From IMG/VR virus record IMGVR_UViG_3300032277_000005, positions 1-52,702 of that record: a stretch of 52,702 bases of DNA. One strand, 5' to 3'. The DNA is from a virus. Taxonomy: Duplodnaviria; Caudoviricetes. This document shows positions 1 through 52,149 of this stretch, in pieces; the stretch's first letter is position 1, and the number at the start of each line of letters is the position of its first letter. Made by a program: the position numbers and the translations under genes. The notes beneath the pieces are model-generated. The model was not told where the DNA came from. It did not search any database and was given only the letters and a program-made list of their open reading frames with translations.

Positions 1-68
1 TAACCCTTAAAGCAGCGCGTTGATTTGAGCGCAGCGAAAAGCAATCCGCCTGACTTTTGTTGTTAGGC
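1..68 (-). mobile_element. attC-like site (complete copy at 52573..52643)
   Basis: Minus reading across the origin: GCCTAAC-AACAA-AAGTCAGG...GCTGCTT-TAAGG-GTTAAGC (R''-spacer-L''...L'-spacer-R'). Confidence 0.85.
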
Positions 69-127
69 TCAGGAATTACGGTACATACTATGAATGACGA
101 TGAACTAATAGCAAAGATAAGTGAAAA
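1..127. repeat. 127-bp terminal direct repeat (copy 1); circular-assembly overlap
   Basis: 1..127 is identical to 52576..52702. Confidence 0.95.
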
Positions 128-452
128 ACTCCTCGGCTACAGGGAAGGAAGCCCAGAAAACATTATCTGTAAGATAGACGCAATGCAAGATAGAGACTCA
201 ACTCTGTGGATAGGTGCATTCCGCTATTACTGTGGTCGCATGACAATAGCTGTAAGCGGATTTTGCGAAACAATGATCAGCAACATTGAAAACATTCCAG
301 ATGAAGCAGTGTCAATAATTAAGCGCGACCTAATTGAGGCTTTTGCTGATGACGACCGGGATCGCGAAGTTGGGAATGCCGTAAAACGACTTGGTATGGA
401 CTGCGATCGGCAGAAATGGCTGGAGGTTCTAGCCGCGATAAGCGGAGCCTAA
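90..452 (+). CDS. cassette-borne hypothetical protein
   Basis: ORF 57..452, likely ATG at 90; bounded by GTTAGGCTC (62) and GAGCCTAAC (445-453). Confidence 0.75.
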   Translation: MNDDELIAKISEKLLGYREGSPENIICKIDAMQDRDSTLWIGAFRYYCGRMTIAVSGFCETMISNIENIPDEAVSIIKRDLIEAFADDDRDREVGNAVKRLGMDCDRQKWLEVLAAISGA

Positions 453-499
453 CAAAGAGATAGACGGCGCACCGCGTCCGTTGCATCGAGGTGTTATGA
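447..499 (-). mobile_element. attC-like site (short family A)
   Basis: GCCTAAC...GTTATGA hairpin; shares AGAGAT..GCATCGAGG(T/C)GTTA with sites at 2317 and 44279. Confidence 0.8.
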
Positions 500-589
500 G
501 TAATACAAGCGAACATTAAATAACGGAGATAATATGAAAACACTAGAAGAAGTACAAGCGCAGTTACTAGGCGAGAAGGAGAGTAAGTA

Positions 590-1336
590 ATGCCTAAAAT
601 CGTGAACATGGAAGGGCTAAAGTTTGGAATGTTATCCGTTGTAAATAGGGCTGGGGTCAATAGTGATGGGAGGGTAACATGGCATTGCCAGTGTGATTGC
701 GGCAATGAAAAAGTGGTTAGTGGTAAAGCCATGAGAGGGGGGGAGACTTCAAGCTGTGGCTGTCTTCGCTGGGGCGATAAACGGAAAGCGGATGACATGA
801 AAATCACAAAAGCAGACATCGAAGCAGTAGTAACGTATAACCCTGAAACCGGCGCACTGATATGGAAGGAGCGCACAGCAGAGCAGTTTGAAGATAAAAA
901 TCTTCGGCGCGCATGGAATGATCAATGGGCGGGCGGCAAAGCAGGCCACTTCGAGGCAGACGAAGGGCATGTTAGGTTGAAAATAAAAAACAGGCAGATC
1001 TACGCTCGTAGAGCTATTTACATTCTAATGACCGGGAGAAACCCACCAGGGCCATTGATATTAAAAGATGGGGACAAGGGTAATTTAAAATGGGCAAATA
1101 TCGCTGTTAAAGAAACAAAGAAGTCTCTAGCAGAGAAAAGAGCGGCGCGACTCGCAGCAAGAAAGCCTAAGCCTGTATATCCAGGTGTAGTCTATGACTG
1201 GTATGACAAGAAATGGTTAGCTGTGATAAATCTAGCCAAGTTCGTCACTATCAGGGTTGGTGTATTCGCAACAGACAGCGAGGCTATCAAGGCCAGGGCT
1301 GATAAGCTGGAATCAATGGGGCTGGCTAGCTGTTGA
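590..1336 (+). CDS. HNH/AP2-type homing-endonuclease-like protein, HNH residues degenerate
   Basis: N-terminal FGMLSV..WHCQCDCG..SCGC motif; YNPETGALIW; HNH-like segment lacking His; C-terminal YPGV..KKWLAVI..GVF AP2-like region. Confidence 0.75.
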   Translation: MPKIVNMEGLKFGMLSVVNRAGVNSDGRVTWHCQCDCGNEKVVSGKAMRGGETSSCGCLRWGDKRKADDMKITKADIEAVVTYNPETGALIWKERTAEQFEDKNLRRAWNDQWAGGKAGHFEADEGHVRLKIKNRQIYARRAIYILMTGRNPPGPLILKDGDKGNLKWANIAVKETKKSLAEKRAARLAARKPKPVYPGVVYDWYDKKWLAVINLAKFVTIRVGVFATDSEAIKARADKLESMGLASC

Positions 1337-1351
1337 TGAGAAGGTGAGCAT

Positions 1352-1425
1352 TTATAACCCCTTGCTATGCGGCGCGACGTTAGGATCGTCCGGCGCGTAG
1401 CGCGAACATGAGCAAGTTGTTATGG
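1352..1425 (-). mobile_element. attC-like site
   Basis: Minus reading CCATAAC-AACTT-GCTCATGT...GCATAGC-AAGGG-GTTATAA; extra C in L''. Confidence 0.85.
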
Positions 1426-1811
1426 CGGATTTGCACAACATTAACGACCACATGGCAAGATATTGTGAGTGTGGATGCGTGAGATTTAACCTGCTGCGTA
1501 GTGGCGCTATTGAGTGCGACGACTGCCAGCTTAAACAACCAAAACTAAATTGGAGTGAAGACATGAACCCGGATTACAAACCAGAAGCAGAAGTAACTTT
1601 TAGCGATGACCAGATTGAGCAAGGCAAGGAAATTATTCGCGCGGCGATAACCAAAAATCAGCAGTGCTTTTGGCCTGACATTGTTGCAGAGGGTAACGGC
1701 TCTCTGCCTGCTTGGGTGCTACTTAAAGCGATCAGTGAAATGCAGAAAACAAAAGAGCTACGCTTGCGCGAAGACAGCTACGAACACGCAATGGAATATA
1801 TTTTGCGGTGA
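1422..1811 (+). CDS. cassette-borne hypothetical protein with CxCxC/CxxC zinc motif
   Basis: ORF; ends GTTATGGC (1419) and GCCATAAC (1812). Confidence 0.7.
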   Translation: MADLHNINDHMARYCECGCVRFNLLRSGAIECDDCQLKQPKLNWSEDMNPDYKPEAEVTFSDDQIEQGKEIIRAAITKNQQCFWPDIVAEGNGSLPAWVLLKAISEMQKTKELRLREDSYEHAMEYILR

Positions 1812-1812
1812 G

Positions 1813-1875
1813 CCATAACGCCATAGCTAAATGGGCCACGCAGTTTGTGGCTCCAATTTCAGTGACTTGTTATAC
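1813..1875 (-). mobile_element. attC-like site
   Basis: Minus reading GTATAAC-AAGTC-ACTGAAAT...ATTTAGC-TATGGC-GTTATGG; 40 bp identical to the site at 45606. Confidence 0.9.
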
Positions 1876-1889
1876 GAGGATAAATAAAG

Positions 1890-2075
1890 ATGGATAGAAG
1901 AAACGAAGACTACGAGCTAGCTGCAAAAATTGTTGACGAAGTGCTAAATAAGTCAAGCTTGCATAGACTACCTCACGAAGACGGGACATCTCCAACCTAC
2001 TGCCTTGGGCTAGAGGAAGGAGGAACTCTGCCATATATTGCGGAGCTGTTAGCTAAACACAGGCTTGGCGTATAA
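1890..2075 (+). CDS. cassette-borne hypothetical protein
   Basis: RBS GAGG; ends GTTATACG and CGTATAAC; stop overlaps TAAC. Confidence 0.7.
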   Translation: MDRRNEDYELAAKIVDEVLNKSSLHRLPHEDGTSPTYCLGLEEGGTLPYIAELLAKHRLGV

Positions 2076-2130
2076 CGCTTTAATTAAAAGGCTGCGCTTT
2101 TCGCAGTCCGTTTTGAACTACTTGTTAGCT
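2070..2130 (-). mobile_element. attC-like site
   Basis: Minus reading AGCTAAC-AAGTA-GTTCAAAA-CGGACTGCG..CGCAGCC-TTTTAAT-TAAAGC-GTTATAC; textbook attC spacing. Confidence 0.9.
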
Positions 2131-2142
2131 GTGGAGGCTACG

Positions 2143-2322
2143 ATGAAAAAACCAACGATTGATGATTTGAAAAAAGAGCTTGAAGCTGCAAGCAAGCGGA
2201 TAGAAATTCAAGAACGGTATTTAACTGAAGCGGACACTGTGCGCCGACTTATTGTTGCAGCGGGGCTGATTGATGAGGATAAGTTTCGACAAGCAGAGGA
2301 ACTTATAAGTAAGGACAGCTAA
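2143..2322 (+). CDS. cassette-borne small coiled-coil protein
   Basis: GGAGG RBS then ATG 2143 (MKKPTIDDLKKEL); ends GTTAGCTGT and ACAGCTAAC. Confidence 0.7.
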   Translation: MKKPTIDDLKKELEAASKRIEIQERYLTEADTVRRLIVAAGLIDEDKFRQAEELISKDS

Positions 2323-2369
2323 CAGAGAGATCGGAGGCGCGTAGCGACCTCTGCATCGAGGCGTTATAG
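2317..2369 (-). mobile_element. attC-like site (family A)
   Basis: AGCTAAC-AGAGAGATC...GCATCGAGGC-GTTATAG. Confidence 0.8.
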
Positions 2370-2546
2370 ACCCGCAACAATACGGAGTGAAAGGCAATAT
2401 GAGGATAGGACAAGGCATAGCTCGTGCTGCGCTTGTGGCCGGGGCTACAGTGCTTGAGATTTTTGACAAGCCAGCGGCGGGTTTGTGGGCCGTTATTGTT
2501 GTATGGGTTTTCCTAGCAGACTGGCACCTAAAAGAGATAGGCAAAG

Positions 2547-3029
2547 ATGACTAACCCAACACACATAACAGCAGACACCCTGCCCGGCATTATCGACAAC
2601 CTGAAAGCGGCTTGTGAGTCAGACAAAGATTACCAGTCGTCAATAACGCTGTTCGATAACTCACTGAAAGCCCGCCAGAGGGCGCTGGCTAACTGTTGGT
2701 ACAAAGATATAGCCGATAGCGAGGGTTATACATCAGGCTACGCAGAGGCGCTTTGCAAATATCATTACGGGTTCCGCATCAGGTGTGAGAATGACCCGGA
2801 TTTAGAGCGCATTATTCGCAGTATGCTTGACGGCAGGGCCTACGATGCAAAGCTTAAAATAATAGAGGTGTATCGTGAGTTCTTCCCAATACTGAGAAGC
2901 AAAGACGGAATGTCCACAGAGCAGCAAGGCCGATACCTATTCGAGATACAGCGCGGTATGGGTGCAGAGGGAATATTCCTATCAACACCTAAAGAGCGAT
3001 CACTATTGAGTTACCCGGAGGCAGGATAA
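2547..3029 (+). CDS. NinB/YbcN-like recombination protein
   Basis: SLKARQRALANCWYKDIA and STEQQGRYL..I motifs; position among nin-like genes. Confidence 0.55.
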   Translation: MTNPTHITADTLPGIIDNLKAACESDKDYQSSITLFDNSLKARQRALANCWYKDIADSEGYTSGYAEALCKYHYGFRIRCENDPDLERIIRSMLDGRAYDAKLKIIEVYREFFPILRSKDGMSTEQQGRYLFEIQRGMGAEGIFLSTPKERSLLSYPEAG

Positions 3030-3307
3030 TGGCTAAGAAAACAAAAATAAGGCAGTCAGCTAGAAACGAGGCTTGTTCGCTTCGCGTATCGCCACAGTGC
3101 CAAGATGGCGAGACAGTTGTTTTCTGCCATCTAAACAGCCCGAACAAAGGCATGGGCATCAAAAGCCCTGATATTTTCGGCGTGTACGGCTGCTACTGGT
3201 GTCATCAACAACTTGACTCAGGCAATGTAAATTACAGCGACAAACTAAGGGCGCTGATGGAAACACAATACAAGCTGGTCGAAAAAGGGCTTATTAGTTA
3301 TGGGTAA
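3029..3307 (+). CDS. DUF1364/YbcO-like HNH-fold protein
   Basis: IRQSARNEACSLR..C..ETVVFCHL..GMGIK..D..GCYWCH. Confidence 0.75.
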   Translation: MAKKTKIRQSARNEACSLRVSPQCQDGETVVFCHLNSPNKGMGIKSPDIFGVYGCYWCHQQLDSGNVNYSDKLRALMETQYKLVEKGLISYG

Positions 3308-3743
3308 GAATGTTGTTATCGGGTGTGACCCAGACTCAAAAGCTCATGGCGTGGCTGTTTACATGGATGGGAGGTTGATAGAGCTACGCAGCTTTGAGCT
3401 GCTAGAGCTACAGCAATACATCGAGCAGGACTGTTGTGGTTCTAACAGTATAGAGCTGCATATCGAAAATGTTTGCGGGGTAAGTGCGGCATTCAACGCA
3501 AGGGATAGGAAAACAAATCTCAATGTGAAGTTAAAAATTGCGCAGCATATTGGAATGTGCAAGCAAGCCCAGGTTGAAGTTGAAAGAATGGCTGAGGCTA
3601 ACGGCGTGAAAGTAGTTAAGCACAAAATATCTAAGATGTGGAAAAAAGACAAAGCGCAATTTGAGAAGGTAACAGGCTGGAGTGGGCATAGTAATGAAGA
3701 CACGCGCAGTGCAAGCTGGTTTGGCTATCTAGGCTGTAAATAA
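3300..3743 (+). CDS. RuvC-like Holliday junction resolvase
   Basis: IGCDP, HIEN and NEDTRSA acidic motifs of the RNase H fold. Confidence 0.55.
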   Translation: MGKNVVIGCDPDSKAHGVAVYMDGRLIELRSFELLELQQYIEQDCCGSNSIELHIENVCGVSAAFNARDRKTNLNVKLKIAQHIGMCKQAQVEVERMAEANGVKVVKHKISKMWKKDKAQFEKVTGWSGHSNEDTRSASWFGYLGCK

Positions 3744-3757
3744 ATATAAATTAGCGC

Positions 3758-3786
3758 TTGCATTAGCGCACATAATATAGTATACT
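3758..3786 (+). promoter_or_regulatory. sigma70-type promoter
   Basis: TTGCAT-17 bp-TATACT, followed by a CCAGC..GCTGG hairpin and GGAG RBS. Confidence 0.65.
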
Positions 3787-3834
3787 GGTTTCACCAGCTA
3801 AGGGAAGCTGGCTTTTATTAAACCGGAGAAAGCT

Positions 3835-4071
3835 ATGATTTATGCACAAGTTGGAACAATGCGGAAGGCAGGGTTAGCCGCGAAGTGGGGAAGGTTGAAA
3901 GGAGGTGCGCCAGCCATGTTTGTTAGGAACCCGGCTAGCGACCTAAAACACCAGCGGGAAAAGTGGTGGCATTTTGACGAGGCCATGCAAAAGTTAATGA
4001 CCGCCGAGGGAGTGGTCAAAGGGTTTGATTCTGCGACGTTGTTGGGGGGTATTTTTAGCATTAAAGCATGA
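3835..4071 (+). CDS. hypothetical protein
   Basis: ORF with RBS downstream of promoter. Confidence 0.6.
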   Translation: MIYAQVGTMRKAGLAAKWGRLKGGAPAMFVRNPASDLKHQREKWWHFDEAMQKLMTAEGVVKGFDSATLLGGIFSIKA

Positions 4072-4319
4072 ATGATTGCGATTATTGCAGAGACAGCGAC
4101 GGCGACCTATATAGTTGCCCGAACTGTCACGGCGAAGGATTTAATATAATGACACCAAAAACAAACGCACAACTACAAAAGACCCGCGACGATAAGCAGC
4201 GGGCAATGGGGCGCACTGGGCGCAAGGTCTGGGCGACACCAGAGGAACACGCGCATATTAATCAATGCCTGGCCAAGTACCGAAAAAAGCAGGAAAGGCT
4301 AGCAAGGAAAGCACAATGA
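4068..4319 (+). CDS. hypothetical protein with CxxC pairs
   Basis: ORF coupled by ATGA overlap. Confidence 0.55.
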   Translation: MNDCDYCRDSDGDLYSCPNCHGEGFNIMTPKTNAQLQKTRDDKQRAMGRTGRKVWATPEEHAHINQCLAKYRKKQERLARKAQ

Positions 4320-4675
4320 CTGACATAACCGGAACATGGGCCACCATCCCCGACTGCCCTAAGTACGAGTGCCTTTACGATCAGTCGAAGGGTACAAAGG
4401 TGCGGTTTAAAAAGACGGGGCCCGCTATACGCAACGGGATTAGCCGAAACGGCAGAAAGGCTGGCAAGTATTTAGAGGTTGGGCATGATGGGATGTTGGC
4501 TATAAAAAATCACCCAAACATGATGGCTTGTAGATGGACACCGCAAGAGTTGTGGGAGCACACATTTAAAAGCAAGCGCCTAATCACACCGGCAGAGCGC
4601 AAAGAAATCAGAATGCGCGAGGCGGCAGAGAGAAGGGCAGCAAATCAACTAAACAGGGATATGATAAGTGAGTGA
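4316..4675 (+). CDS. hypothetical protein, NUMOD4-like N-terminus
   Basis: Likely ATG at 4316 (MTDITGTWATIPDCPKYE). Confidence 0.5.
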   Translation: MTDITGTWATIPDCPKYECLYDQSKGTKVRFKKTGPAIRNGISRNGRKAGKYLEVGHDGMLAIKNHPNMMACRWTPQELWEHTFKSKRLITPAERKEIRMREAAERRAANQLNRDMISE

Positions 4676-5096
4676 AATAATGAAGATCAGGCTGCTGTCT
4701 GATTCAGCGACAGTACCAAGCAGGGCGACCAAGGGCAGCGCTGGTTATGACCTGAGTTGTGACAAGGGTTTTATCCTACAGCCCAATGAGCGGCGACTGA
4801 TCGGCACTGGGTTGGCTATAACGCTGCCTGTAGGGTCGTGGGGCGAAGTAAGGTCACGATCAGGGTTGGCGTCAAAGTACGGCATCGACGTTCAGGCAGG
4901 GACGATAGACCAGGATTATATCGGGGAGTTAATGGTGCTGCTGGTTAACAACGGCAATAGGCCGCTACGGTGTGAAACCGGCGACAGGATTGCACAGCTA
5001 GTCGTCCAAAAATGCATGAAGCCAAATATTATGGTAGTGCCGTCGCTGGATAAAACAGACCGTGGCGATGGTGGCTTTGGGCACACTGGGAAATAA
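4668..5096 (+). CDS. dut: trimeric dUTPase
   Basis: All five motifs: AGYDL, RSG, GTIDQDYIGE, GDRIAQL, RGDGGFGHTG. Confidence 0.95.
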   Translation: MSEIMKIRLLSDSATVPSRATKGSAGYDLSCDKGFILQPNERRLIGTGLAITLPVGSWGEVRSRSGLASKYGIDVQAGTIDQDYIGELMVLLVNNGNRPLRCETGDRIAQLVVQKCMKPNIMVVPSLDKTDRGDGGFGHTGK

Positions 5097-5151
5097 CGCT
5101 TTAGCTAAATCGCGCAGCGTAGCGGAGTCGAATTTCAGCGCGTTGTTAGGC
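5091..5151 (-). mobile_element. attC-like site abutting the dut stop codon
   Basis: Minus reading GCCTAAC-AACGC-GCTGAAAT...ATTTAGC-TAAAGC-GTTATTT. Confidence 0.9.
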
Positions 5152-5164
5152 GCATTACGGAGTA

Positions 5165-5395
5165 ATGAGAATGGGCATAAATAGATATAAAAAAGACCAC
5201 AATATAGATGGGTGGCATGTAGTGGACACTGAGCGCGGAGGGATATTGCACGCCGATGATATTGTTAAACGCTTAAACGAATATGAGGCTCTTTTGGCTG
5301 AGGCCGATGAGTACTTAAGCATCAATGAATTAACAAGCATTGGCAGTGGAAGCATTCTTCATCAGAAGTTTATAGCGATAACAGGCAAATACTAA
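5165..5395 (+). CDS. cassette-borne hypothetical protein
   Basis: ORF; ends GTTAGGCG (5145) and CGCCTAAC (5396-5403). Confidence 0.7.
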   Translation: MRMGINRYKKDHNIDGWHVVDTERGGILHADDIVKRLNEYEALLAEADEYLSINELTSIGSGSILHQKFIAITGKY

Positions 5396-5442
5396 CGCCT
5401 AACAGCACAGGCAAGCTAGCTGCAATCAACAGGGCAACCCCA

Positions 5443-5685
5443 ATGAACCCAACACTTAAATACAGATGCGGAGAGTGCGGCGACTCGCACAACGACCACG
5501 ACGAAGCACTCGAGTGCTGCCCTCCACAAATAAACGAAGTGTATCTGTGTGGGCACTGCCATGAAGACTACGGCCACGACGAAGACGCCGCCGAAAATTG
5601 CTGCGATGACGTTGACCCGGACGCCCTACCAATAGTAAGCCAACAAGAACTCGAAGCTGCAGGCCAAATGAGGCTCTGCGCATAA
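5443..5685 (+). CDS. Cys-rich acidic small protein
   Basis: Two CxxC...CC repeats. Confidence 0.7.
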   Translation: MNPTLKYRCGECGDSHNDHDEALECCPPQINEVYLCGHCHEDYGHDEDAAENCCDDVDPDALPIVSQQELEAAGQMRLCA

Positions 5686-5738
5686 CGCTTTAGGTAAAGC
5701 GCCGAGGTACGAGGTCGATTTTGACCGACTTGTTATAT
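5680..5738 (-). mobile_element. attC-like site
   Basis: Minus reading ATATAAC-AAGTC-GGTCAAAA...CTTTACC-TAAAGC-GTTATGC. Confidence 0.9.
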
Positions 5739-5751
5739 TTTGGAGGTTGGT

Positions 5752-5940
5752 ATGAAATTTGAAGATAGCACTGGATGGATTTGGTTTTTTGTTGACGAGT
5801 ATGGCGATGTAGGCACTGAATTTTTTTGGCTTGAAGAAAAGGAAGGTGAAATGCCGTACCAAATGGAAAAGGCTAGTTGGGATACTGAGAATAAAAGCTC
5901 TATACCAACAAGGGCAAGAATAGCGGAATTAAAGATATAA
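5752..5940 (+). CDS. cassette-borne hypothetical protein
   Basis: GGAGG RBS and ATG 5752; ends GTTATAT and ATATAAC. Confidence 0.7.
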   Translation: MKFEDSTGWIWFFVDEYGDVGTEFFWLEEKEGEMPYQMEKASWDTENKSSIPTRARIAELKI

Positions 5941-6022
5941 CCGCGGATTTAACCGGAGAGGAATGGAGCAATGAGTGAAACGAATAGCGGAATGACGAAT
6001 CCGGTTGAAACCTTTGTTAGGG
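5935..6022 (-). mobile_element. attC-like site (family B) encoding RBS, ATG and leader of the next gene
   Basis: ATATAAC...GGAG..ATGAGTGAAACG...GACGAATCCG...GTTAGGG. Confidence 0.85.
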
Positions 6023-6306
6023 TGCCGTGGCCTGAGGATAAATTGCCCTTGAAATTGAAAAACCCTAAGTGCCCGATTTGTGGCGGGGCATTATTTATTA
6101 CTGGGGTTAACGCTTGTGAGCAGGAGGATAACGGCGACTGGATAGCAAGCGAGATTGACATTGATTGCGAAAACGAGCCGGACATTGACAGTGACGAATG
6201 GGAAGACTGGCACAAGTGGCACTACAGCATGCCATATGTGGATTGGCTGCCGATAGACCGGCAGATTTTGAAAATGGTGCAGAGGACGTTTTACTTTGCA
6301 CCCTAA
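5971..6306 (+). CDS. cassette-borne zinc-ribbon protein starting inside attC
   Basis: CPICGG motif; ends GTTAGGGTGC and GCACCCTAAC. Confidence 0.7.
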   Translation: MSETNSGMTNPVETFVRVPWPEDKLPLKLKNPKCPICGGALFITGVNACEQEDNGDWIASEIDIDCENEPDIDSDEWEDWHKWHYSMPYVDWLPIDRQILKMVQRTFYFAP

Positions 6307-6360
6307 CCTTTACTTAACCGGTGCAGCTTTGCTGCATCCGCGTTTAAGTTGTTGTTATGT
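6301..6360 (-). mobile_element. attC-like site
   Basis: Minus reading ACATAAC-AACAA-CTTAAACGCGGATGCAGC-AAA-GCTGCACCGGTTAAG-TAAAG-GTTAGGG. Confidence 0.9.
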
Positions 6361-6383
6361 TTCGATTGTACAGATTCTAAGCT

Positions 6384-6445
6384 GTGAACTTATTTCACTT
6401 TATTTGTGTTATTTGCTTGACTATGTGAACTTAGTGCACTATAAT
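6384..6445 (+). promoter_or_regulatory. cassette-internal sigma70 promoter with two operator-like imperfect palindromes
   Basis: TTGACT(6417)-17 bp-TATAAT(6440); GTGAACTTATTTCAC (6384) and GTGAACTTAGTGCAC (6425). Confidence 0.8.
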
Positions 6446-6492
6446 TAGTTTCAAGAGTTAGGGAATGGCCCTAACAAAACGGAGCTAAGACA

Positions 6493-6681
6493 ATGATTAA
6501 ATCAGTAGACGAACTAAAAGCAGGCGACATTCTTAAAAACACTAATCATGGTTTTGAGATTGAAATTAAAGAGATTGGTAAAAAGAACACCCGCTACATC
6601 AACTTAGAGACTGGTGAGAAAGTAAAAAGCTTCACTACAAAATTCAACTTCATGCTACGCGAAGGAGTGTTTGTTAAGTGA
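6493..6681 (+). CDS. small basic hypothetical protein
   Basis: GGAG RBS; first gene of the promoter-bearing cassette. Confidence 0.7.
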   Translation: MIKSVDELKAGDILKNTNHGFEIEIKEIGKKNTRYINLETGEKVKSFTTKFNFMLREGVFVK

Positions 6682-7121
6682 ACGCAAAACAGACCAGATT
6701 AGCCCGACAAATGCTGGGCTTAAACCAAACCGAGTTTGCTGCACTGCTTGGCTGGACAAGCAAAAGAAACATAGTGAATTTAGAGCGCGGCGATAAAGAA
6801 GTAATGACACAAACAGCTTTAGCAATTGAATGCTTACTAAGAAGAAATAACAAATTTGGAGAGTTTGAGATGATTAATAAAATGCAGCCAGTTTTGGATT
6901 TTATATTAACTGAGATTAAGCGCGTTAATGGAAGCCGATCCGACAATACCACCATTTCTCAAGACGAAACAAATCAAGAGCTGGTTGATATTTTTCACGA
7001 TACTGCAAATAAGTTTACTGATATTGACTTTGAATTAACTGACAGCGAGGACGATCTAATAGAGCTTTTTGGCTACAAGGGCTATTGCTCTATTCGTGAA
7101 GCTGAAAGCGGTGCGTATTAG
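6678..7121 (+). CDS. XRE-family HTH regulator with C-terminal extension
   Basis: ARQMLGLNQTEFAALLG..IVNLERG. Confidence 0.8.
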   Translation: MNAKQTRLARQMLGLNQTEFAALLGWTSKRNIVNLERGDKEVMTQTALAIECLLRRNNKFGEFEMINKMQPVLDFILTEIKRVNGSRSDNTTISQDETNQELVDIFHDTANKFTDIDFELTDSEDDLIELFGYKGYCSIREAESGAY

Positions 7122-7123
7122 AA

Positions 7124-7185
7124 ACATAACCGATAGCTTAACGGCTGGCGCTTTTGCCAGTCCGATTTACAGCGCCTTGTTAGGC
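7124..7185 (-). mobile_element. attC-like site
   Basis: Minus reading GCCTAAC-AAGGC-GCTGTAAA...GTTAAGC-TATCG-GTTATGT. Confidence 0.85.
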
Positions 7186-7199
7186 GCGGGAGAGACTAG

Positions 7200-7409
7200 A
7201 TGCCAGTTACAGATTACAGCGATGCCGATTTAGTTAAGCGAGCGGTAAGAAACGCAAAACCAAACATAAACGGAACCGCACCTCGATGGGTTGCCGTAAT
7301 GGATACTTTCGGCCTTGGCAGAACATACGCATACGAATTATGCCGGTTGCATGACTTGAATCCAGACGACCCGATTGAGGGCGCACGTTGTATTTCCTGC
7401 AACCCTTAG
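7200..7409 (+). CDS. cassette-borne phage hypothetical protein
   Basis: ORF; ends GTTAGGCGC and GCGCCTAAC. Confidence 0.7.
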   Translation: MPVTDYSDADLVKRAVRNAKPNINGTAPRWVAVMDTFGLGRTYAYELCRLHDLNPDDPIEGARCISCNP

Positions 7410-7410
7410 C

Positions 7411-7488
7411 GCCTAACCCCATAAACACGCGGAAACGAAACAAGCGAAGCGGCGTGTAGTGAATCGCCGTGATTTTACATTGTTATAT
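7411..7488 (-). mobile_element. attC-like site (own cassette apparently truncated)
   Basis: GCCTAAC...CACGCGG..CCGTGATTTT..GTTATAT; no matching ATATAAC end downstream. Confidence 0.75.
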
Positions 7489-7581
7489 TTTGGAGATTTT
7501 ACGATGAGTGAGTTACAAACGGTAGCGGCAAGGCTCTGCAAACAATTGAGATGTTAATTAAGGCGATGAAGGTGAGAGATA

Positions 7582-35004: not shown

Positions 35005-35343
35005 ATGGCGTTTTTATCAGAGGAAGACTACGAGGCTAGAAAGAAGTCTAAAGTAGCCAAGCTACCCGCAGCAGACAAAACAGGCGATGCTATCAAAGAG
35101 ATTGCCAAGGTATCTGCCACGCTAGCCGATGTTTCTACCAATACGCTCCGTATGGCCACTGAGAGCGCCGCTGAGAGCGCCACACAGACACAAGAGCTTA
35201 TTACTGCGCTAACTGCCGCCATTGCAAAGATGGGGCAGCACAAGGGCGCAAGGCCAGCCCCAGTAAGACTTGTGATTAACCGCAAAGACCGTCTTATAGA
35301 CACTATCGATGTAATACCTCTTGTCAAAAAGGCTGATAAATAA
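35005..35343 (+). CDS. hypothetical protein
   Basis: Coupled ORF. Confidence 0.6.
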   Translation: MAFLSEEDYEARKKSKVAKLPAADKTGDAIKEIAKVSATLADVSTNTLRMATESAAESATQTQELITALTAAIAKMGQHKGARPAPVRLVINRKDRLIDTIDVIPLVKKADK

Positions 35344-38300
35344 TGTCCAAAGTTTCATGTATTAATACTACTGCCAACCTTGATAAGCGTGATGTAAAGA
35401 CATTCAAGGCTGATATTAAATCAGGAGCCAAACCAGAAGATGTTGTTGAGATTCTTATTAGTGACGCCTTAGCAGAACACGAAAGTCTACTTGAAATCAT
35501 CCGAAGCAAGGGTGGTGTTGTTGAGGGTTATGTTCCCCCGGTAGAGGAGTTAAAGCCCGCCGCCGACGTTAAGGGGGAAGAGATAGAGGCGACCAAGGTA
35601 GGAAAGAAAAAGCCACGAGCAACCCCACCTGAAAAGAAAGCTCAGGCCGCAAAAAAAACTGAAGCTAAACCAAGCCCCACAAGCGCCCGCCCCGGAATCC
35701 TAACCGAAAGCAAAGCCAAGATAATAAGGTCTATGGCTAAAGATGCTGGAGTGAAAAAAGGGTCGCCGGGGTACGAAGATGCTATGACTGAAATAGCGTC
35801 TAAGTATGATGATGAGCTTGAGCGAGCGGAGTTTTCACTGCCTTTTGAAGAGTTTAAGGCTTTGCCTGATAACGGGCGCACAAGTGATGAGCAGTTAAGA
35901 GTTATTTACGACAGTGTAAGGGAAGAGCTGGGGATAAAAGAAAAGACCGCTGCGCCGGTAGACGAGCCTTTAGACGAGGAAGTGCGATTTCAAATCGCAG
36001 TTGATGATAGTAATCAGGCTATCATTGATGAGATTGACGAACTTTCAAAAAAGGCTAAAGCTCGTAAGGCTGAGTCTGAGCCAGAAGGAATGTCGATTGA
36101 TCTTGTTTTGCCTGAGCTTGATTATTTGTCAGATAAAGAAAAAACTCGATTCCATGATCTTAAGCAATCCCTCCCAAGTCAAGGGCAGGAGGCGACTGAT
36201 GCGAAAGCAAGAAACAAGGCGCGTGTTGCTGCGCGAAAAAATGCCAAGGAAAAGACTGTTGAGCTGGCTGACACCTCTGATGTTGGCGGCGAAATGTCAT
36301 TTAATCGCAGAGGCAAGGGGATAACTGCCAGCGAAATAAGAAACACTGAAAACGAGACAGAGCGCGTAGCACTCGCCGTAAAGTCGAAACTATGGAAGCG
36401 CCCAGATTATCAAGTCATGGTTGATGAGGGTGTTCAACCGGCAATCGCCCATGTAATAAAGCAAATATACGACAGCATCCCAACAAAACCCCCGTTTACT
36501 GGCGATAAGTATCTCAATGCCTACGCTGAAACTGTAGAAGCTACCCGGCAAGCCATAGATGACGTGCTGCTGAATCCCAAAAAGCTCGCAGCAATAATGG
36601 CCGCTATAAACGTGCAGATACAGAAAAGACAGGCTGTGTTCGGCGGCAAGGGCATGGATATATCGGAGTTGATGAACAAGGCGTTAGACCCTGTTACTGG
36701 CGCTGACCCGTTAGAGTCGATCACTGATATTGTCTTCCCCGAGAATGACGAAGGCGCTCGGTGGGGGCGCAAGAACGTAGAGGGCAACGATAAGGCTAAT
36801 GCCACCAACAACCTGTATAAAAACACAACCATATCAGTCGAGATGCTAACCAAGGCGCTTATAGCGATTGATAAGAAAGGCTGGCCTGCCAAGCAAGAGT
36901 CGTGGCAGCGGTCGTACCGCATAGAAGAGAAAGACGGCGAATTCCGTTTAATCAAAAACAAACGATACACGCCAGAAAGCATACATAAATCTAAAGATGA
37001 CGCGATAGAGGCCGCAAGGGCGCTTACCAAAAAAAGCAAGGATGATAAGTTTAAAGAACCTGAAACTCCCGTGGAGAACTCAAGGCGATTAGGCGATGAC
37101 TCTCGCGGCGGCAGGAACGTATCTTCCAAAGAACTGCAAGAAAGGTTCGGCTTAAAGGCTATAAATTTTGGCAACTGGATGAGCAAGCCCGCTGCGGCTA
37201 AAGAAAGGCAGGGCCATGTTAACAGTGCTTATGACGCCCTTAGTGATCTTGCGATAACCTTAAATCTTCCTGATAAAGCCATGTCCTTTGATGGTCAGCT
37301 GGGCCTGGCTATCGGCGCTCAGGGCGCTGGTGGTAGGAATGCCGCGCATTTTGTCGCAGGTGTTAATGAGATCAACCTAACCCGAACGTCTGGCGCAGGC
37401 AGCCTGGCCCATGAGTGGGCGCACATGCTTGACCATTACTTTGGTGTCCAGTCAGGAATGGCTGCAAGTTCAGACCCGTTCGCGTCATGGGCGACACTTG
37501 GGGTGAGGAAGATAAAAGAAGGTTCAGAAATTCGCCCGGAGATGGCAGAGGCATTTGGCACAATCGTCGAGGTCATGCGGAAAAAGAAAGAATCCATTGA
37601 GGCTATGAAGGCAAGGGAGCAGAAACACGCTGACCTCGCGGTCGAATCACTTAGTAAATTTATCGACAGCAACGACATAAGAAGCATTGTTGCAGGGGAC
37701 AAAGATGCAGAGGCGGCGCTTGCCAATATAGAGAAGGGCGGCAAGTCAGATTATACCGAGTGGCCCCCTGTTGGTAGGCGAAGAAAGCCAGAAGGGTACA
37801 CGTCGGCAGACGTTAAGTTAATTGCTGACCTAGCAGGATGGGATTTTGCGAAGGCTGACAAACTTAACAGCGAGGCTGGTGCTGTAAGGGTTTATGTTGG
37901 CGATTCCAAGATGGCTCAGAAGCAGCTTACATTGCACACTGATTTTTACCGTAACGCATCGGGGCTAGAGAGTAAAAGCGGCAAGCCTTATTGGACAACG
38001 CCGCATGAAATGTTTGCAAGGGCATTCGAGACATACGTTACCGACAAGCTAGACGGCAAAGATAAACTAAACAGCTATCTTGTAAGCGAGTGGAAAAACA
38101 ATACAGACGGCGAGATGGAGGCTCTTTTTAACGACGGCCCTAACTTCCGATACCCGCGTGATGCTGATAGAGCTGCGATCAACGAAGCCTTTGACACTCT
38201 TATTGGCGGAATAAAGACAAAGGAGACTGACAGCGGTGTGGCGCTGTATAGCCGCAACTACAAAACCAATCCAGCAGCAGCAACCGTCGCTGAAATCAAC

Positions 38301-41300
38301 GCAGAACTATCGACCGCTGTAAGCCGCTTAGACAAGGCGATAAAGCAGCGAGTACAGATCGTTCAGACTACAAGCGATCTTCCCGTAGACGTGCCTACAG
38401 ACGTTCGTGGAATGTATTACGACGGTATTGCCTACGTTGTCGCTGATAACACGCCTGTATCTGACGCAAAGACCGTATTAACCCACGAGATAGTGGGCCA
38501 CATGGGCCTGGAGGAAATGCTAGGCGATTCATTCTCTGACGTTATCGGCAAGATCAAGCGCATGAAGCGAGTAGGTAACAAGCAGGTCGCGGAGATTGTC
38601 AAAACACTAAAGAGAAGCTATGTCGATGAAAACGGGAATTACGCACTAACACCTAATCAAGAAGCAAGGGAAATACTCGCCCATATTGCCGAGACCGACC
38701 ACAACCACTCATTAGTCAAACAGATTATTGCCAAGCTAAAACTATGGCTGGCACGAATGGGGCTGGCTAACAAGGATAGCGCGGAGGTTGGCTACCTGAT
38801 TGCACAGGCCGCAAGGTATGTTGAGGGCAAGGGTGATGCTGTATTAATAACTTCTACGGGAAATATAGAGCCTTATTTCGCTAAAGCCTATCATGGATCG
38901 CCGCACAAGCATGATGGAAGGCTAGACCCCTCTAAGATAGGCACAGGCGAAGGCGCACAGGCTTACGGTTATGGGTATTATGTGGCTGAGAGCGAAAAAG
39001 TCGCCGACAGCTATAGAGTGCAGCTTTCTGACGCGAAAGTAACCTTTGACGGGAAGGTTGCAAAAGACCCTTACCATGTAGAAGAAGGGCGAATGATTAA
39101 AGAATCATATCGGATTGAAATAGCTGAGATAGCACTGTCTTTGCGAGGCCGGTATAAAAATAACAAAGGTAATATGCAGAAAGCTATAATAGAGAATGGG
39201 GCCAAATATATTAATGACAGGGATTCCTTATCGCAATATAGAAAAGACACAAACTATGTTTTGAGCAACTTGGATAGATTCGACTATGAAAAAGGCCACC
39301 TATACGAATACGAAATAGACGACGACGCCATAAGCAAGATGCTTGATTGGGATGCGCCTTTGAGCGAGCAGAGCGACAGTATTCAGGGTGTCGCGGCAAG
39401 GGAGCTTGCTTTAGAAACCGGGATAACCCCAGCCCATGAAAATTTTGAGGCTATGGTGGGGCTGGCTAAGAATCAACTAAATGCTAAGACTGGCGAAGAT
39501 CTATATAAAAGCATGGTGAATAGGCTTGGCATGGATGCAGAGGTGTCACCGGACGAGATTGCTAGCCGTTATTTGTGGGCAGAGGGCGTCCCCGGCATTA
39601 AATACTACGACGGGCAATCAAGAGGCGAGGGGGAGGGAACCCGCAACTTTGTCATATTCCCTGGCGCAGAAGATATTGCAACGCCTATAAGCCGTAATGG
39701 AGTAATGTTTAGCAGAGAAACCCCAGGCACTCCAGAGTACGAAGCCGCTAAAGCTAAGGGCCTGGATATGTCCAAAAAAGCCAGGATGCAGCGAGCGCGG
39801 GATATGGGCTTTGATACCGATACCGTTTGGTATCATGGGACAGGTCGCCAATTCAGTTCATTCGACCCTAAAGCTGAGGGGGAGTTTTCTTCAATAGACA
39901 CTAATAATGTTGTTACTTTTACCACAGATGAAAATATAGCCAAAAGATACGCTAAGGAGTCAGCCGTTTCTGAAAAACAATGGGACGACGAACTAAACAG
40001 GTATATAAAAAATGGAAACCCGCGCATTGTTGAGGCATATTTGCCCTCAAACATAAAAAACATTGATGCTATCGGGAGACACCATGATTCTAAATGGATG
40101 ATTGGAGAGCAAGAAAAAGCGCGAAATCAAGGGTTTGATGGCGTTCGCTTTAATGGGTTAGCTGACGATGTTTACTACAATCCACTGGCAGGCGCGTCAG
40201 ATATAACACAGATATTCGACCCCTCTAATATCCGCTCAGTAAACGCCGCCTTCGACCCTATGGAAAAAGACAGTGCTGAACTGTTGTTTTCTCGGGGTGA
40301 TGGGAACTGGAAGGATGATTCCACAGGCTTCGCCATACCAGACGAGACTTGGAAGACAGTTGCTATCCGAAAGCTACAGGATAAATTTAAAGTCCTGAAA
40401 GACTTACAGGCTAACATTATTGAATCTGGAGGTGAGATTAGCGAGGAGGCAAACGCCTATATTGCGGAAGAGCTATTCCACGGCAAGGCGGAAAACGATA
40501 TTGCCATAATGAGGGATGAATTTGTCGCGCCAATGGCTGAGAAGATGGCGGAGTCTGGTATCACACAGGCACAGCTTGACAAATATCTTTATGCGCTACA
40601 CGCCGAAGAGCGGAACGATCATATAGCGTCAATAAACCCTGATATGCCCGACGGCGGGTCTGGGATGAAGACATCTAAAGCCAAAAAAATTATTGCCGAT
40701 ATAGAGCAGGGAGGCAAGGCGGCTGACTACAAAGACCTTGCCGGCATTGTCCATGCGATGCTAAGAGAGCGCCGCAGAGTTATTATTGACGGCGGCCTTG
40801 AGGATGACGGCCTAATTGATGCATGGGAAGATAAGTACAAAAACTACGTTCCGTTAAAAGGCTTTGCTGAGAACGAGCTAGATGACTCAAGACCAAAAAC
40901 AGGGCAAGGCTTTAACATTGGTGGCAAGGAATCCAAACGTGCACTAGGCCGAGGCTCAGAGGCCGCTAGCCCATCATCGTTCGCTATTATCGACCTGACA
41001 GAAACATTGGTTCGCAATCGCAAGAACGAAGTGGGTAACGCGCTGTTAAAGCTGATTGAAGACAACCCGCAAGAAAGCTATTGGGCATCTTATACCGAAG
41101 ACAACCCAGACACCGACCGGCGCATTGTGAAAGTGGATGGCAAGGATGTTGTCAAAGAGACAGTCATCCCAATGGCTTTGATGAAAGACCAATACTTCAC
41201 CACTAAGCGTAATGGAAAAACGCATTACATGAAGCTGGAAGACCCTCGCTTAATGGACGCGATGAAGAACCTTGGCGTAGAGCATGGCGGCACTGTCATT

Positions 41301-44278: not shown

Positions 44279-44327
44279 ATATAACACCTCGATGCAGCGG
44301 GCGGAGCCGCCGATCTCTTTGTTAAAT
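44279..44327 (+). mobile_element. attC-like site (family A)
   Basis: ATATAAC-ACCTC-GATGCAGC..GCCGATC-TCTTT-GTTAAAT. Confidence 0.8.
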
Positions 44328-44533: not shown

Positions 44534-44590
44534 ATTTAACAAAGCAGTCAAAACGACTGCGTAAACTTGCGTTTTACCTCGTGGTTATGC
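44534..44590 (+). mobile_element. attC-like site
   Basis: ATTTAAC-AAAGC-AGTCAAAA...TTTTACC-TCGTG-GTTATGC. Confidence 0.85.
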
Positions 44591-44785
44591 GCCTTTCTTT
44601 AAGGCTCTTTTACTGTAGTCTCTGTATATTTTGTGGCCGCATTTCCAGCACCTTGGTTCGCTCTTAGCAGTAGATTTGGCTGTGTCATAGCCACAGTTGC
44701 CACAAGGCTCGTACCATATATCAAAATCACGTAGCGCATAACAACGCGCTGAACTCGGATTCGTCTCTTTACTCGCTTCGCTCAT
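44585..44785 (-). CDS. cassette-borne zinc-ribbon protein starting inside attC
   Basis: MSEASKETNP.. with CGNC and CWKC; ends GTTATGCGC and GCGCATAAC. Confidence 0.7.
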   Translation of the reverse strand: MSEASKETNPSSARCYALRDFDIWYEPCGNCGYDTAKSTAKSEPRCWKCGHKIYRDYSKRALKKGA

Positions 44786-44817
44786 TTCGTTCCTCACCGG
44801 TTAGCTCAAGGTTAGGC
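44736..44817 (+). mobile_element. attC-like site (family B, leader-encoding)
   Basis: GCATAAC-AACGC-GCTGAACT-CGGA...CCGGTTAGC-TCAAG-GTTAGGC. Confidence 0.9.
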
Positions 44818-45082: not shown

Positions 45083-45154
45083 GCCTAACAACAAATTGTT
45101 GCAGACTGTTCAATCGCTGCGCTCAATCACAGCGGCAAAATAAAAAGGTTAGCT
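45083..45154 (+). mobile_element. attC-like site
   Basis: GCCTAAC-AACAA-ATTGTTGC...GCAAAAT-AAAAAG-GTTAGCT. Confidence 0.85.
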
Positions 45155-45367
45155 GCCCTTAAACTTCTGCATTATTTCTTTGCATTTATCAATATCACCA
45201 CTTCGCCTAAGATCGTCTATATCCATCTCACCCATAGCTCGTCTATCTTCTGACCAAGGGTCGCCATCGTGTTCGTATTCATCATAATCAATTACCGCGT
45301 TTAGAAGCAGCTCAAAAGCAGCTAACAACACGTTCAAATCTGACTCGCTACACTTCGTTTCGCTCAC
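45149..45367 (-). CDS. cassette-borne protein starting inside attC
   Basis: AGGAG RBS and GTG start within attC; ends GTTAGCTGC and GCAGCTAAC. Confidence 0.7.
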   Translation of the reverse strand: MSETKCSESDLNVLLAAFELLLNAVIDYDEYEHDGDPWSEDRRAMGEMDIDDLRRSGDIDKCKEIMQKFKGS

Positions 45368-45388
45368 AATTTAACTCCTACGTTATAC
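45320..45388 (+). mobile_element. attC-like site (leader-encoding)
   Basis: AGCTAAC-AACAC-GTTCAAAT...ATTTAAC-TCCTAC-GTTATAC. Confidence 0.9.
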
Positions 45389-45605: not shown

Positions 45606-45670
45606 TTATAACAAGGCACTGAAATTGGAGCCACAAACTGCGTGGCCCATTTAGCTTGATTGCGTTATGC
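45606..45670 (+). mobile_element. attC-like site
   Basis: TTATAAC-AAGGC-ACTGAAAT...ATTTAGC..GTTATGC; 40 bp identical (inverted) to 1825..1864. Confidence 0.9.
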
Positions 45671-45863: not shown

Positions 45864-45919
45864 GCATAACAAGTCGTCAATCGGACGGCTGCGCCAGCCG
45901 GTTACTTTTGGCGTTATGC
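45864..45919 (+). mobile_element. attC-like site
   Basis: GCATAAC-AAGTC-GTCAATCGGACGGCTG..CAGCCGGTTAC-TTTTGGC-GTTATGC. Confidence 0.85.
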
Positions 45920-46177
45920 GCCAAGTCTTCGTATTATGGCGGCAATTTTCTTTGTCATCGTTCCCCAAAAGCTGCCGTTAATCCATTCGTAGTTGGCACC
46001 TCTATCTTGGGTTTCAACAACTTTTGCACACTCTTCAATGGCCTCCGATCTAACGTCTGCCAATATCTTTAAATGATCGCTGTATCTAACCCATTCGCCA
46101 GCGGCGTCTACCTTTTCAAAAAGGCTCTGTCCCGTGTTGGGGCAATACCCAACGTCAAATTCATATCTATCAACCAC
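45914..46177 (-). CDS. cassette-borne phage protein (second gene of a two-gene cassette)
   Basis: GEWVRYSDH..AIEECAK..IAAIIRRL. Confidence 0.65.
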   Translation of the reverse strand: MVDRYEFDVGYCPNTGQSLFEKVDAAGEWVRYSDHLKILADVRSEAIEECAKVVETQDRGANYEWINGSFWGTMTKKIAAIIRRLGA

Positions 46178-46364
46178 AGCAACCTCCGTTCACTTTCTCA
46201 GCGTCTTTATATTCTTTGTCAATATCTTCTATTAACCCAACCTCAATTAACGGTATAGGCGTCCCATCTTCTAAGGTGGGTCGCCCGCACCATCCGCACC
46301 GATAGCGCATAACAACACGCTCAAGGCTCGCCTTCGGCTGGACTTCGTTCTTCGCTTCGCTCAT
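46170..46364 (-). CDS. cassette-borne protein starting inside attC
   Basis: MSEAKNEVQ..; CGWCG; cassette ends GTTATGCGC (45913) and GCGCATAAC (46305). Confidence 0.65.
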   Translation of the reverse strand: MSEAKNEVQPKASLERVVMRYRCGWCGRPTLEDGTPIPLIEVGLIEDIDKEYKDAEKVNGGCCG

Positions 46365-46391
46365 CTCTCGCCCCTTAGCTCTGGGTTATAT
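46307..46391 (+). mobile_element. attC-like site (family B, leader-encoding)
   Basis: GCATAAC-AACAC-GCTCAAGG...CCTTAGC-TCTGG-GTTATAT. Confidence 0.9.
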
Positions 46392-48934: not shown

Positions 48935-49113
48935 AAGTCTACATAATATGCGCAATTATCTTGGTTGTAGCATTCTTGCAAGGCTGCGGCTATGACGACG
49001 AGACCCTTGCTGCCGAGCATTATGTAAGCATGGTGTGTTCTGGGGCGTGGCCAGATTATCGAAGTGTACAGCCTGATTGCACAATACCGCCAGCACGACC
49101 AAATCAATACTAA
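48931..49113 (+). CDS. small lipoprotein
   Basis: Signal peptide with LQGC lipobox. Confidence 0.6.
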   Translation: MKVYIICAIILVVAFLQGCGYDDETLAAEHYVSMVCSGAWPDYRSVQPDCTIPPARPNQY

Positions 49114-49163
49114 CGCCATGGCTAGCCGGAGAGGAGCGAAATGAGCAAAGCGAATGAAGACGA
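49108..49163 (-). mobile_element. half attC site (L'-R' arm, family B)
   Basis: TACTAAC-GCCATG-GCTAGCCGGAGAGGAGCGAAATGAGC.. resembles the corresponding arm of 44736 and 5935. Confidence 0.6.
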
Positions 49164-49239
49164 TTGACCACCAACACCTAGTCGGATTATAATTAACGTA
49201 GGAAACCGACTTCCTACCTCTGGGCCTTCCCTCCCAGGC

Positions 49240-49461: not shown

Positions 49462-49503
49462 CTTTAACTTTCGATACAAACCTAATTGATAGAGGTTGTA
49501 CCT

Positions 49504-52069: not shown

Positions 52070-52133
52070 GAATAACGCCAGAGCTGTGCGGCGTGGAGCG
52101 CAGCGTAACGTCCGAACGAGCGACTTGTTAAGC
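52070..52133 (-). mobile_element. attC-like site
   Basis: Minus reading GCTTAAC-AAGTC-GCTCGTTC...GCACAGC-TCTGGC-GTTATTC. Confidence 0.85.
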
Positions 52134-52149
52134 AAATTATTTGGAGATA

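Follow-up and report, generated by a model that had tools for sequence, protein, structure and literature searches.

attC-type recombination sites between the early genes of a tailed phage that encodes no integrase, and their relationship to the sites of chromosomal integrons

Integrons are regarded as bacterial devices, with the sedentary chromosomal integron of Vibrio cholerae as the literature example, and the origin of their cassettes, namely the way in which a gene acquires its attC recombination site, is an unresolved matter. The integron integrase, IntI, is to our knowledge the only enzyme known to move attCs. In T4-type phages, stem-loops that carry promoters, the promoter-early stem-loops (PeSLs), have been proposed as mediators of gene shuffling via homologous recombination. 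For attC sites themselves, the study of Qi, Rajabal, Ghaly, Tetu and Gillings (2023, PMC9892861) recovered from 10,705 phage genomes three complete integrons, one In0 and 17 clusters of attC sites lacking an integron integrase (CALINs, each with at least two attCs). As described there, IntI1 recombined five of the six phage-borne attCs tested, the array of TJE1 holds three attC sites and four open reading frames (ORFs), two arrays have the usual bacterial cassette orientation, and phage CALINs without intI were proposed to use a bacterial IntI (PMC9892861). Here we analyse the IMG/VR record IMGVR_UViG_3300032277_000005, a marine Caudoviricetes genome whose entire 52,702 bases are called the window below, in which hairpins with the architecture of attC sites separate the short early genes. 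An earlier reading of this DNA (the original prediction) had treated attC clusters without IntI as mainly a feature of bacterial replicons, a statement overtaken by the phage CALINs already in print (PMC9892861).

The window has direct terminal repeats and is rated 100% complete; its first 127 bases equal its last 127, leaving a unique genome of 52,575 bases and bearing out the earlier description of the genome as complete. Leftward minus-strand genes run from about 48.7 to 43.2 kb, rightward genes run from about 48.8 kb across the terminal junction to 7.5 kb, and structural genes span 7.6-43 kb. There are 21 TAAC...GTTA hairpins, 13 on the right arm and eight on the left, with none in the 35-kb structural block; the sites at 52573 and at 1 are one site, duplicated by the 127-bp terminal redundancy. 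Every position named in the original prediction holds the element described, and at each of them the layout is confirmed: a 5' TAAC and a short unpaired spacer (mostly about 5 nt) lead into a bulged hairpin whose tip varies, and another spacer precedes the 3' GTTA, the whole separating short early ORFs on both divergent arms. Besides the 21 sites there are two remnants, an eroded site at 49107 and a half site at 46653 (minus strand), and the site at 5938 (5935..6022, counted among the 21) itself resembles a half site or remnant. The bare pattern TAAC-N40-70-GTTA occurs 40 times in the window against 21.0 +/- 5.2 times in shuffles, none of 100 shuffles reaching 40. That the record is a chimera of phage and bacterial integron DNA is scarcely credible: it is a metagenome assembly, and the best-matching public run may be its own source sample, but phage genes and sites alternate along both arms, a terminal repeat closes the record and the same architecture is found in independent records and samples.

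A covariance model, R1, was built from nine window sites on their sense strand, and a search of the window with filters off gave 25 matches at E<=10. The nine training sites were recovered, together with four non-training sites at E<=0.03 (44736-, 45320-, 52070+ and 46307-), three marginal sites at E 0.05-0.14 (447+, 52573+ and 1352+) and four weak ones at E 3-6 (7411+, 44279-, 5938+ and 45083-) whose call rests on their architecture by eye. In all, 16 sites have E<0.2, each on the sense strand of its own arm, with nothing convincing in the structural block. Five other matches (E 0.3-8.6) were set aside, namely 13578+, 28360+ and 20433- in the structural block and the antisense matches 447- and 44279+ on short sites. 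Three sites of 43-47 nt (450, 2320 and 44282-) form a separate short class with its own model, R2, which over 15 loci found only its own training members. RNAalifold on the nine sites gave R-box pairing, a spacer, 3 bp, a bulge, 4 bp, a bulge, 2 bp, a bulge, 5 bp and a loop, with compensatory change in 11 of the 18 pairs. Over a larger set of 68 sites (59 phage and 9 host), paired cells made up 92.1% against 69.1% in shuffles, and the covariation score was 0.48 against 0.12 (0 of 500 shuffles reached 0.48; slid controls gave 0.035-0.067); the R helix pairs in 98.5% of cells, and changes in the inner stem are compensated. All 21 window sites have TAAC and GTTA, seven of them the full RYYYAAC and seven GTTRRRY. 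The sites thereby display the pairable inverse cores of an attC (5' AAC and 3' GTT) and its geometry of an unpaired spacer, a short L helix, a variable terminal loop and bulges on one strand, all of these in the 3' half. An Rfam 15 search of the window returned no family at gathering score.

A DNA pattern drawn from the window sites picked out 26 other viral and 76 bacterial stretches. R1 matched nine of the 76 bacterial stretches at E<=0.1, and exceeded 25 bits in three genomes only, two of Cycloclasticus (G001 and G002) and one of the Methylophilaceae (G003); the remaining bacterial matches (<=25 bits) were dismissed as chance. All three genomes encode an integron integrase, with TIGR02249 scores of 442.7, 433.6 and 438.2 bits respectively (cut-off 265), a result confirmed on the protein. 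On contig C8 of G001, a metagenome-assembled Cycloclasticus genome, the R1 matches span 147689-164189, all on the minus strand, in a 17-kb array that starts about 800 bp from intI. The content of this array is typical of cassettes, with genes for an SDR oxidoreductase and an Ada-like methyltransferase as well as an inverted VapC toxin-antitoxin pair. The G002 matches come after intI on one small contig (C72). The first attC beside intI in G001 shares 86% identity with window 7125-7186, and the first of the G002 integron 79% with window 5680-5749; the motif GAGCGCAGCGTA is common to host and phage loops. Among 22 Cycloclasticus-family genomes R1 matched 19 at E<=1e-4, and DNA-level comparison with the window gave four matches, all of them attCs. 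The earlier identification of the hairpins as attCs is thus upheld by a phage-built model that finds intI-adjacent arrays in G001 and G002. These arrays, together with the 79-86% identity, imply that the main hairpin class is homologous to bona fide attC sites; for the short class no such homology emerged, with R2 matching none of the 22 genomes. Judged by profile and identity, the main-class hairpins appear to be the genuine attC type of the chromosomal integrons of the Cycloclasticus family and some Methylophilaceae. We also observed R1 matches in Cycloclasticus-family DNA far from the intI array (G001 contigs C4, C10 and C12, and G015 contig C1 at 0.54, 2.06 and 2.46 Mb), which could be further attC clusters or prophage-borne sites.

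Profile searches of the window with PF00589, TIGR02249 and PF00239 gave no match in any case; neither a tyrosine nor a serine recombinase of the phage was found, in agreement with the earlier statement that no tyrosine-recombinase-like ORF is aboard. The window accordingly lacks a complete integron, with intI, attI and a cassette promoter beside the array, and its arrangement is by definition CALIN-like.

The polarity of the sites was fixed by comparison with characterized and host integrons. In the class 1 integron of R100, intI1 and aadA1 are divergent, and on the coding (top) strand it is the 5' half of the aadA1 attC that holds the extra bases, which places them in the 3' half of the bottom strand. 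In G001, the minus strand carries both intI and the R1 matches, and the plus strand the long cassette ORFs; seven of nine sites come directly after a plus-strand ORF, which is the canonical arrangement, in which an attC adjoins the 3' end of an ORF lying on its top strand. The phage sites, on the sense strand from which R1 was built, have their bulges in the 3' half, the same geometry as the bottom strand of the R100 aadA1 site, and in light of both comparisons the phage sense strand is the attC bottom strand. Hence the polarity of the phage genes is reversed relative to host cassettes: they lie on the attC bottom strand, and the canonical arrangement is absent from the phage. The inverted VapC toxin-antitoxin cassette of the G001 array (L137 12343-12965) is a natural case of bottom-strand genes in the host.

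As described in PMC13108822, recombination by IntI works about 1000-fold better on the attC bottom strand than on the top one, and the lagging-strand template favours folding; the crossover is placed at G|TT on the top strand in PMC9892861. This corresponds to AA|C on the bottom strand, so that in the phage the crossover would fall directly behind the TAA stop of the upstream gene. A same-strand ORF of at least 40 amino acids ends in the 5' core at 18 of 20 window sites and at 51 of 57 sites in six phage records (the window included), and reading of the sequence by eye places the upstream stop codon inside TAAC at 14 of the 21 window sites. The reversed polarity ties each attC to its downstream gene and not to the upstream one. 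The cassette organisation originally proposed therefore stands in that the units are bounded by attCs, and fails in that their polarity is inverted and a unit consists of an attC plus the downstream gene rather than a gene plus the downstream attC. The fixed polarity could be the outcome of insertion where TAA-C stops offer secondary AA|C targets, or of selection that favours a bottom strand placed on the lagging-strand template or on the non-template strand. An origin between the arms would agree with the GC skew, but transcription confounds this signal; since the skew follows transcription, we rejected it as sole locator of the origin.

Comparison with relatives bears on the crossover point itself. 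The nearest, G004, is a 20.7-kb fragment with 86% identity to the window in the replication protein, 78% in NinB and 94% in the dUTPase. Between 52070 and 2547 the window carries seven sites, where this fragment and the loci L148 and L149 are without an array; from 52070 to NinB, G004 has no attC. The dUTPase genes of the window, G004, L148 and L149 align through the TAAC and then lead into three different attCs; a short attC with its leader is likewise common to all four from the TAAC onward, behind three different upstream genes. Evidence from other samples (X1-X4) comes from contigs, not reads, and parts of the window uncovered in X2-X4 carry no weight. One X2 contig is 99.8% identical over 1825-2323 and then passes into an attC of the 7414 type, homology begins at 2320 in a second and ends at 1358 in a third. 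The unit 6304-7130 shows no differences in X3 contigs over 6302-7131 or in X4 contigs over 6304-7132, and these are unlike the window outside those spans. In the dUTPase, short-attC and X2-X4 cases the attC always stays with the downstream gene, and among the compared relatives and contigs no long segment was seen to break solely at the 3' GTTA. Homology breaks at the sense-strand 5' TAAC thus bear, if indirectly, on an IntI crossover at AA|C. The comparison of related contigs at AA|C junctions, which had been suggested as a check, showed breaks at the 5' TAAC in G004, L148, L149 and X2-X4, besides some breaks unrelated to any attC. The sites and associated elements are as follows.

1..68, + strand: attC with long variable loop, identical with 52573-52643; TAA of ORF 52141-52578 inside TAAC; R1 17.1 bits, E 0.076; GCTTAAC...GTTAGGC fits RYYYAAC/GTTRRRY.
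447..499, + strand: short-class attC-like site with 47-nt core; stop of ORF 57-452 inside TAAC; R2 63 bits (training member), R1 17.8 bits; homology to G004, L148 and L149 begins at its TAAC.
1352..1425, + strand: divergent attC-like site with shorter spacer; R1 16.1 bits, E 0.14; homology to an X2 contig ends at 1358, the C of TAAC.
1813..1875, + strand: attC; R1 74.2 bits (training member); core nearly identical to 45606-45670; folds as R pairing, spacer, 3 bp, bulge, 4 bp, bulge, 2 bp, bulge, 6 bp.
2070..2130, + strand: attC; R1 69.4 bits; stop of ORF 1890-2075 inside TAAC; an X4 contig matches 2073-2127 only, with both flanks different.
2317..2369, + strand: short-class attC-like site; R2 66.1 bits; stop of ORF 2143-2322 inside TAAC.
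5091..5151, + strand: attC right behind the dUTPase gene (4680-5096), whose stop lies inside TAAC; R1 69.2 bits.
5680..5738, + strand: attC; R1 69.0 bits; stop of ORF 5443-5685 inside TAAC.
5935..6022, + strand: composite long-type attC-like site; R1 only 10 bits, E 5.2; resembles 44739- by eye; ribosome-binding site and ATG of ORF 5971-6306 within the variable loop.
6301..6360, + strand: attC opening the 823-bp module 6304-7130; R1 61.2 bits.
6304..7130, + strand: candidate mobile unit of attC, promoter-like site, ORF 6493-6681 and helix-turn-helix (HTH) regulator 6678-7121, between two TAA|C cores.
7124..7185, + strand: attC nearest to a host attC, 86% identical to G001:C8:147688-147751; R1 60 bits.
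7411..7488, + strand: attC-like site with long loop, the last before the structural genes; R1 10.9 bits, E 3.1; variants with other flanks in X1-X4.
52070..52133, + strand: attC, the first of the right-arm array; R1 30.7 bits, non-training; loop motif GGAGCGCAGCGTA common with host attCs (compare L137 5286 and 9199).
44279..44327, - strand: short-class attC-like site; R2 73.5 bits; 93% identical to L148 5571-5615.
44534..44590, - strand: attC; R1 52 bits.
44736..44817, - strand: long-type attC; R1 41.2 bits, non-training; ribosome-binding site and ATG in the loop.
45083..45154, - strand: divergent attC-like site; R1 9.7 bits, E 6.1; AGCTAAC...GTTAGGC.
45320..45388, - strand: long-type attC; R1 37.5 bits, non-training; GTG start of ORF 45149-45367 inside.
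45606..45670, - strand: attC, twin of 1813-1875; R1 68.7 bits.
45864..45919, - strand: attC; R1 39.6 bits.
46307..46391, - strand: long-type attC; R1 19 bits in the window search and 29.6 bits in a second run; ATG of ORF 46170-46364 inside.
49107..49170, + strand: eroded attC with intact 5' half and lost 3' core, behind lipoprotein ORF 48931-49113; 88% identical to the 5' part of a G004 attC (L140 4744-4793).

R1 also detected arrays in five other phage records, with 13 sites in G005 (52.8 kb, rated 100% complete, with two divergent arms), 10 in G006, seven in G007, where they are spaced 250-340 bp apart, five in G008 and three in G004. PF00589 found no match in any of these five attC-bearing records, two of which are rated 100% complete. 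By tblastn the early ORFs of the window share almost nothing with the attC-bearing viral loci except in G004, and megablast of window 1-7500 against 50,697 phage records gave no match. What links these phages is their sites rather than their genes. A further 15 viral contigs, selected for a Holliday-junction resolvase of 48-75% identity, yielded one R1 match (E 0.67) and were put aside as too distant or without sites.

The best explanation overall, and in our judgment a probable one, is that these are genuine attCs shuffled by the IntI of the infected cell, which would make the early accessory genes a common pool. An action of host IntI in trans, as in the original prediction, is suggested by the lack of a recombinase in the phage, the close match to host attCs and the breakpoints where IntI cuts. 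In this mechanism the integron integrase of the host cell would fold the single-stranded phage attCs and recombine them in trans, with the crossover at AA|C in the 5' core directly behind the upstream TAA stop, and the moving unit would be the C, the attC and the downstream gene or genes up to the next TAA. If two sites on one genome recombined, a unit would be deleted or excised; if the sites lay on co-infecting or related genomes, units would be swapped, so that the pool of early accessory genes would be reshuffled without homology. The host may be Cycloclasticus-like. As a separate observation, X2, which holds near-identical pieces, is labelled an oil metagenome, a weak hint of a hydrocarbon-degrading host.

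Several observations weigh against this explanation: 1) Some attCs recur with both flanks unlike (1816 versus 45609-, 2073-2127 in X4 and 7414-7485 in X3), and changes on both flanks are not predicted by a single 5' crossover. 2) Mosaic breaks occur away from attCs at 565, 3322/3723 and 3761/4264. 3) With R1, eight of the 21 sites fail E 0.03 (447+, 52573+, 1352+, 7411+, 44279-, 5938+, 45083- and 2317+, the last unlisted by R1), and three of these eight are the short class, supported by R2 alone, a model trained on them. 4) The bulged base nearest the 3' core is C in several phage sites, versus G in the four host sites shown. 5) In the 22 Cycloclasticus-family genomes, short-class sites found by R2 number zero, no phage cassette gene is shared with host arrays at the DNA level, and a search for the phage terminase gave no matches, which is no firm word on the host. 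6) The GC content is 48% in the phage versus 42% in the host array.

Some of these points, notably the want of cassette genes common with host arrays, would also suit a process in which host IntI is still the agent but merely inserted attCs, as empty or decayed cassettes, at the secondary AA|C targets offered by TAA-C stops, the sites persisting solely where harmless, with no gain to the phage and no maintained library. Targeting of stop codons would explain why the bottom strand is the sense strand at every site, and the account is in keeping with the 14 sites whose upstream stop lies inside TAAC, the eroded or half sites at 49107, 5938 and 46653-, and the lack of an array in G004, L148 and L149 between 52070 and 2547. 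We nevertheless consider such passive invasion unlikely, given arrays of up to 13 sites in at least six distinct phage records, structure kept by compensatory change, identical multi-gene units that move between otherwise different contexts, and some attCs that have come to supply the start codon from which the downstream gene is translated, an argument for lengthy co-evolution.

The start codons in question lie in the long-type attCs, where a ribosome-binding site and start codon occupy the variable loop at 44739-44814(-), 45323-45385(-), 46310-46388(-) and 5950-6019(+), and also at L140 4741-4822; the encoded peptides begin MSEAK, MSETK or MIKAN, and the ORF reads out through the 3' GTTA core. 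The starts in the four long-type loops of the window fit a long association between an attC and its downstream gene.

Features of this kind also lend themselves to an account without any integrase, in which the hairpins are RNA-level signals (for processing, stability or translation) or linker repeats, and exchange proceeds via RecT, NinB, the resolvase or microhomology. The phage does have genes for NinB, a Holliday-junction resolvase and an annealing protein resembling RecT. On both arms it is the transcribed sense strand that carries the structure, several sites include a ribosome-binding site with a start codon, and certain attC cores reappear where neither flank matches. We find this account quite improbable: an RNA role leaves unexplained the 79-86% identity to intI-adjacent attCs, which lie on the strand opposite to host genes, the conserved ends of about 7 nt are short for annealing-based exchange, and long segments of high identity end at the 5' TAAC, in no case at the 3' GTTA alone. 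A case of recurrence that we record for itself is that of the attCs 1813-1875(+) and 45606-45670(-), which have an identical 40-nt core with different spacers and different neighbouring genes on both sides, and where the source-sample contigs branch.

Returning to shuffling by host IntI, we propose more tentatively, as a scenario that has a reasonable but somewhat less than even chance of being correct, a reverse-polarity cassette system in a marine phage lineage. Here host-type attCs inserted at TAA|C stops would have made the early genes mobile, and the SOS-inducible IntI of the host would swap units among co-infecting phages. The attC would act as a portable 5' leader, at times supplying the ribosome-binding site and start codon, and in a unit captured by a host integron the gene would face away from the cassette promoter and be silent. 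If true, this would be a natural case of cassette genesis.

Early genes recognised in the window encode a RecT-like protein, NinB, a Holliday-junction resolvase, a dUTPase, several HNH endonucleases and an HTH regulator; none of ten small genes tested from between the hairpins matched a Pfam family above threshold. Upstream of a 62-aa ORF and the HTH regulator, within the attC-bounded unit 6304-7130, lies a near-consensus promoter at 6417-6445 (TTGACT, 17 nt, TATAAT; 11 of 12 consensus positions); this promoter may act as the switch to middle or late genes. HNH endonuclease genes lie at 590-1336, 3029-3307 and 49486-50028, with a weaker fourth candidate at 48155-48421 (-). ORF 590-1336 resembles a fusion of two HNH families (phrog_374 at its N-terminus and phrog_99 at its C-terminus), and in G004 the part equivalent to its C-terminus is a separate gene. 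Just before it, behind the short attC at 450, an 18-codon ORF (535-591) is an internal-deletion remnant of a 181-codon G004 ORF (L140 5085-5628), of which it keeps the first 10 and last 8 codons, with the break at 565 and no attC there. Where the window has the HNH gene, G004 has a single-stranded-DNA-binding (SSB)-like gene (L140 5627-6043) behind the short-attC unit, the break falling at the start codon, again with no attC. The structural block closes with one ORF of 2565 codons (35343-43040).

In this phage ordinary genes, such as those for dUTPase, HNH endonucleases and many small proteins, are bracketed by recognisable host-type attCs, in the orientation expected from a stop-codon target, and near-identical units occur in different contexts across samples. 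If host IntI moves these units, phages would exploit a host enzyme for homology-free gene shuffling, from which they may benefit, and phage and host cassette pools would be linked. The attC type could then predict the hosts of uncultured phages, and the phages would offer a tractable system for the birth and exchange of cassettes.

Among known systems, the sedentary chromosomal integron, as seen on G001:C8, has the same R boxes, spacers of about 5 nt, 3-bp L helix, one-strand bulges and variable loop, is likewise an array of single-gene units and also has bottom-strand genes in its inverted VapC cassette. It differs in that the phage is without intI, attI and a common promoter, has its genes on the bottom strand throughout and has its sites scattered among essential early genes rather than in one array. 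Like PeSLs, the sites are repeated intergenic stem-loops that flank small early accessory genes and mark mosaic boundaries; unlike them, they are attC homologues with a defined site-specific crossover point. A full-text literature search found no paper on attC arrays in phages beyond that of Qi et al. (2023), and the IntegronFinder 2 paper refers to phages only in passing. Integrase-less attC clusters in phages are, on the account given in PMC9892861, already known as a kind. No published precedent appears to exist for the number and spread of the sites, for their reversed polarity, for a host attC type that can be traced or for evidence at the junctions, with the proviso that the supplementary tables of Qi et al. 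may list larger arrays. Hence the window shares with the phage CALINs described in PMC9892861 attCs with gene cassettes and no intI, and differs from them, as there described, in having about 21 sites on both arms, with 3-13 in five related records, and in its reversed polarity, a host attC type that can be traced and junctions documented in relatives.

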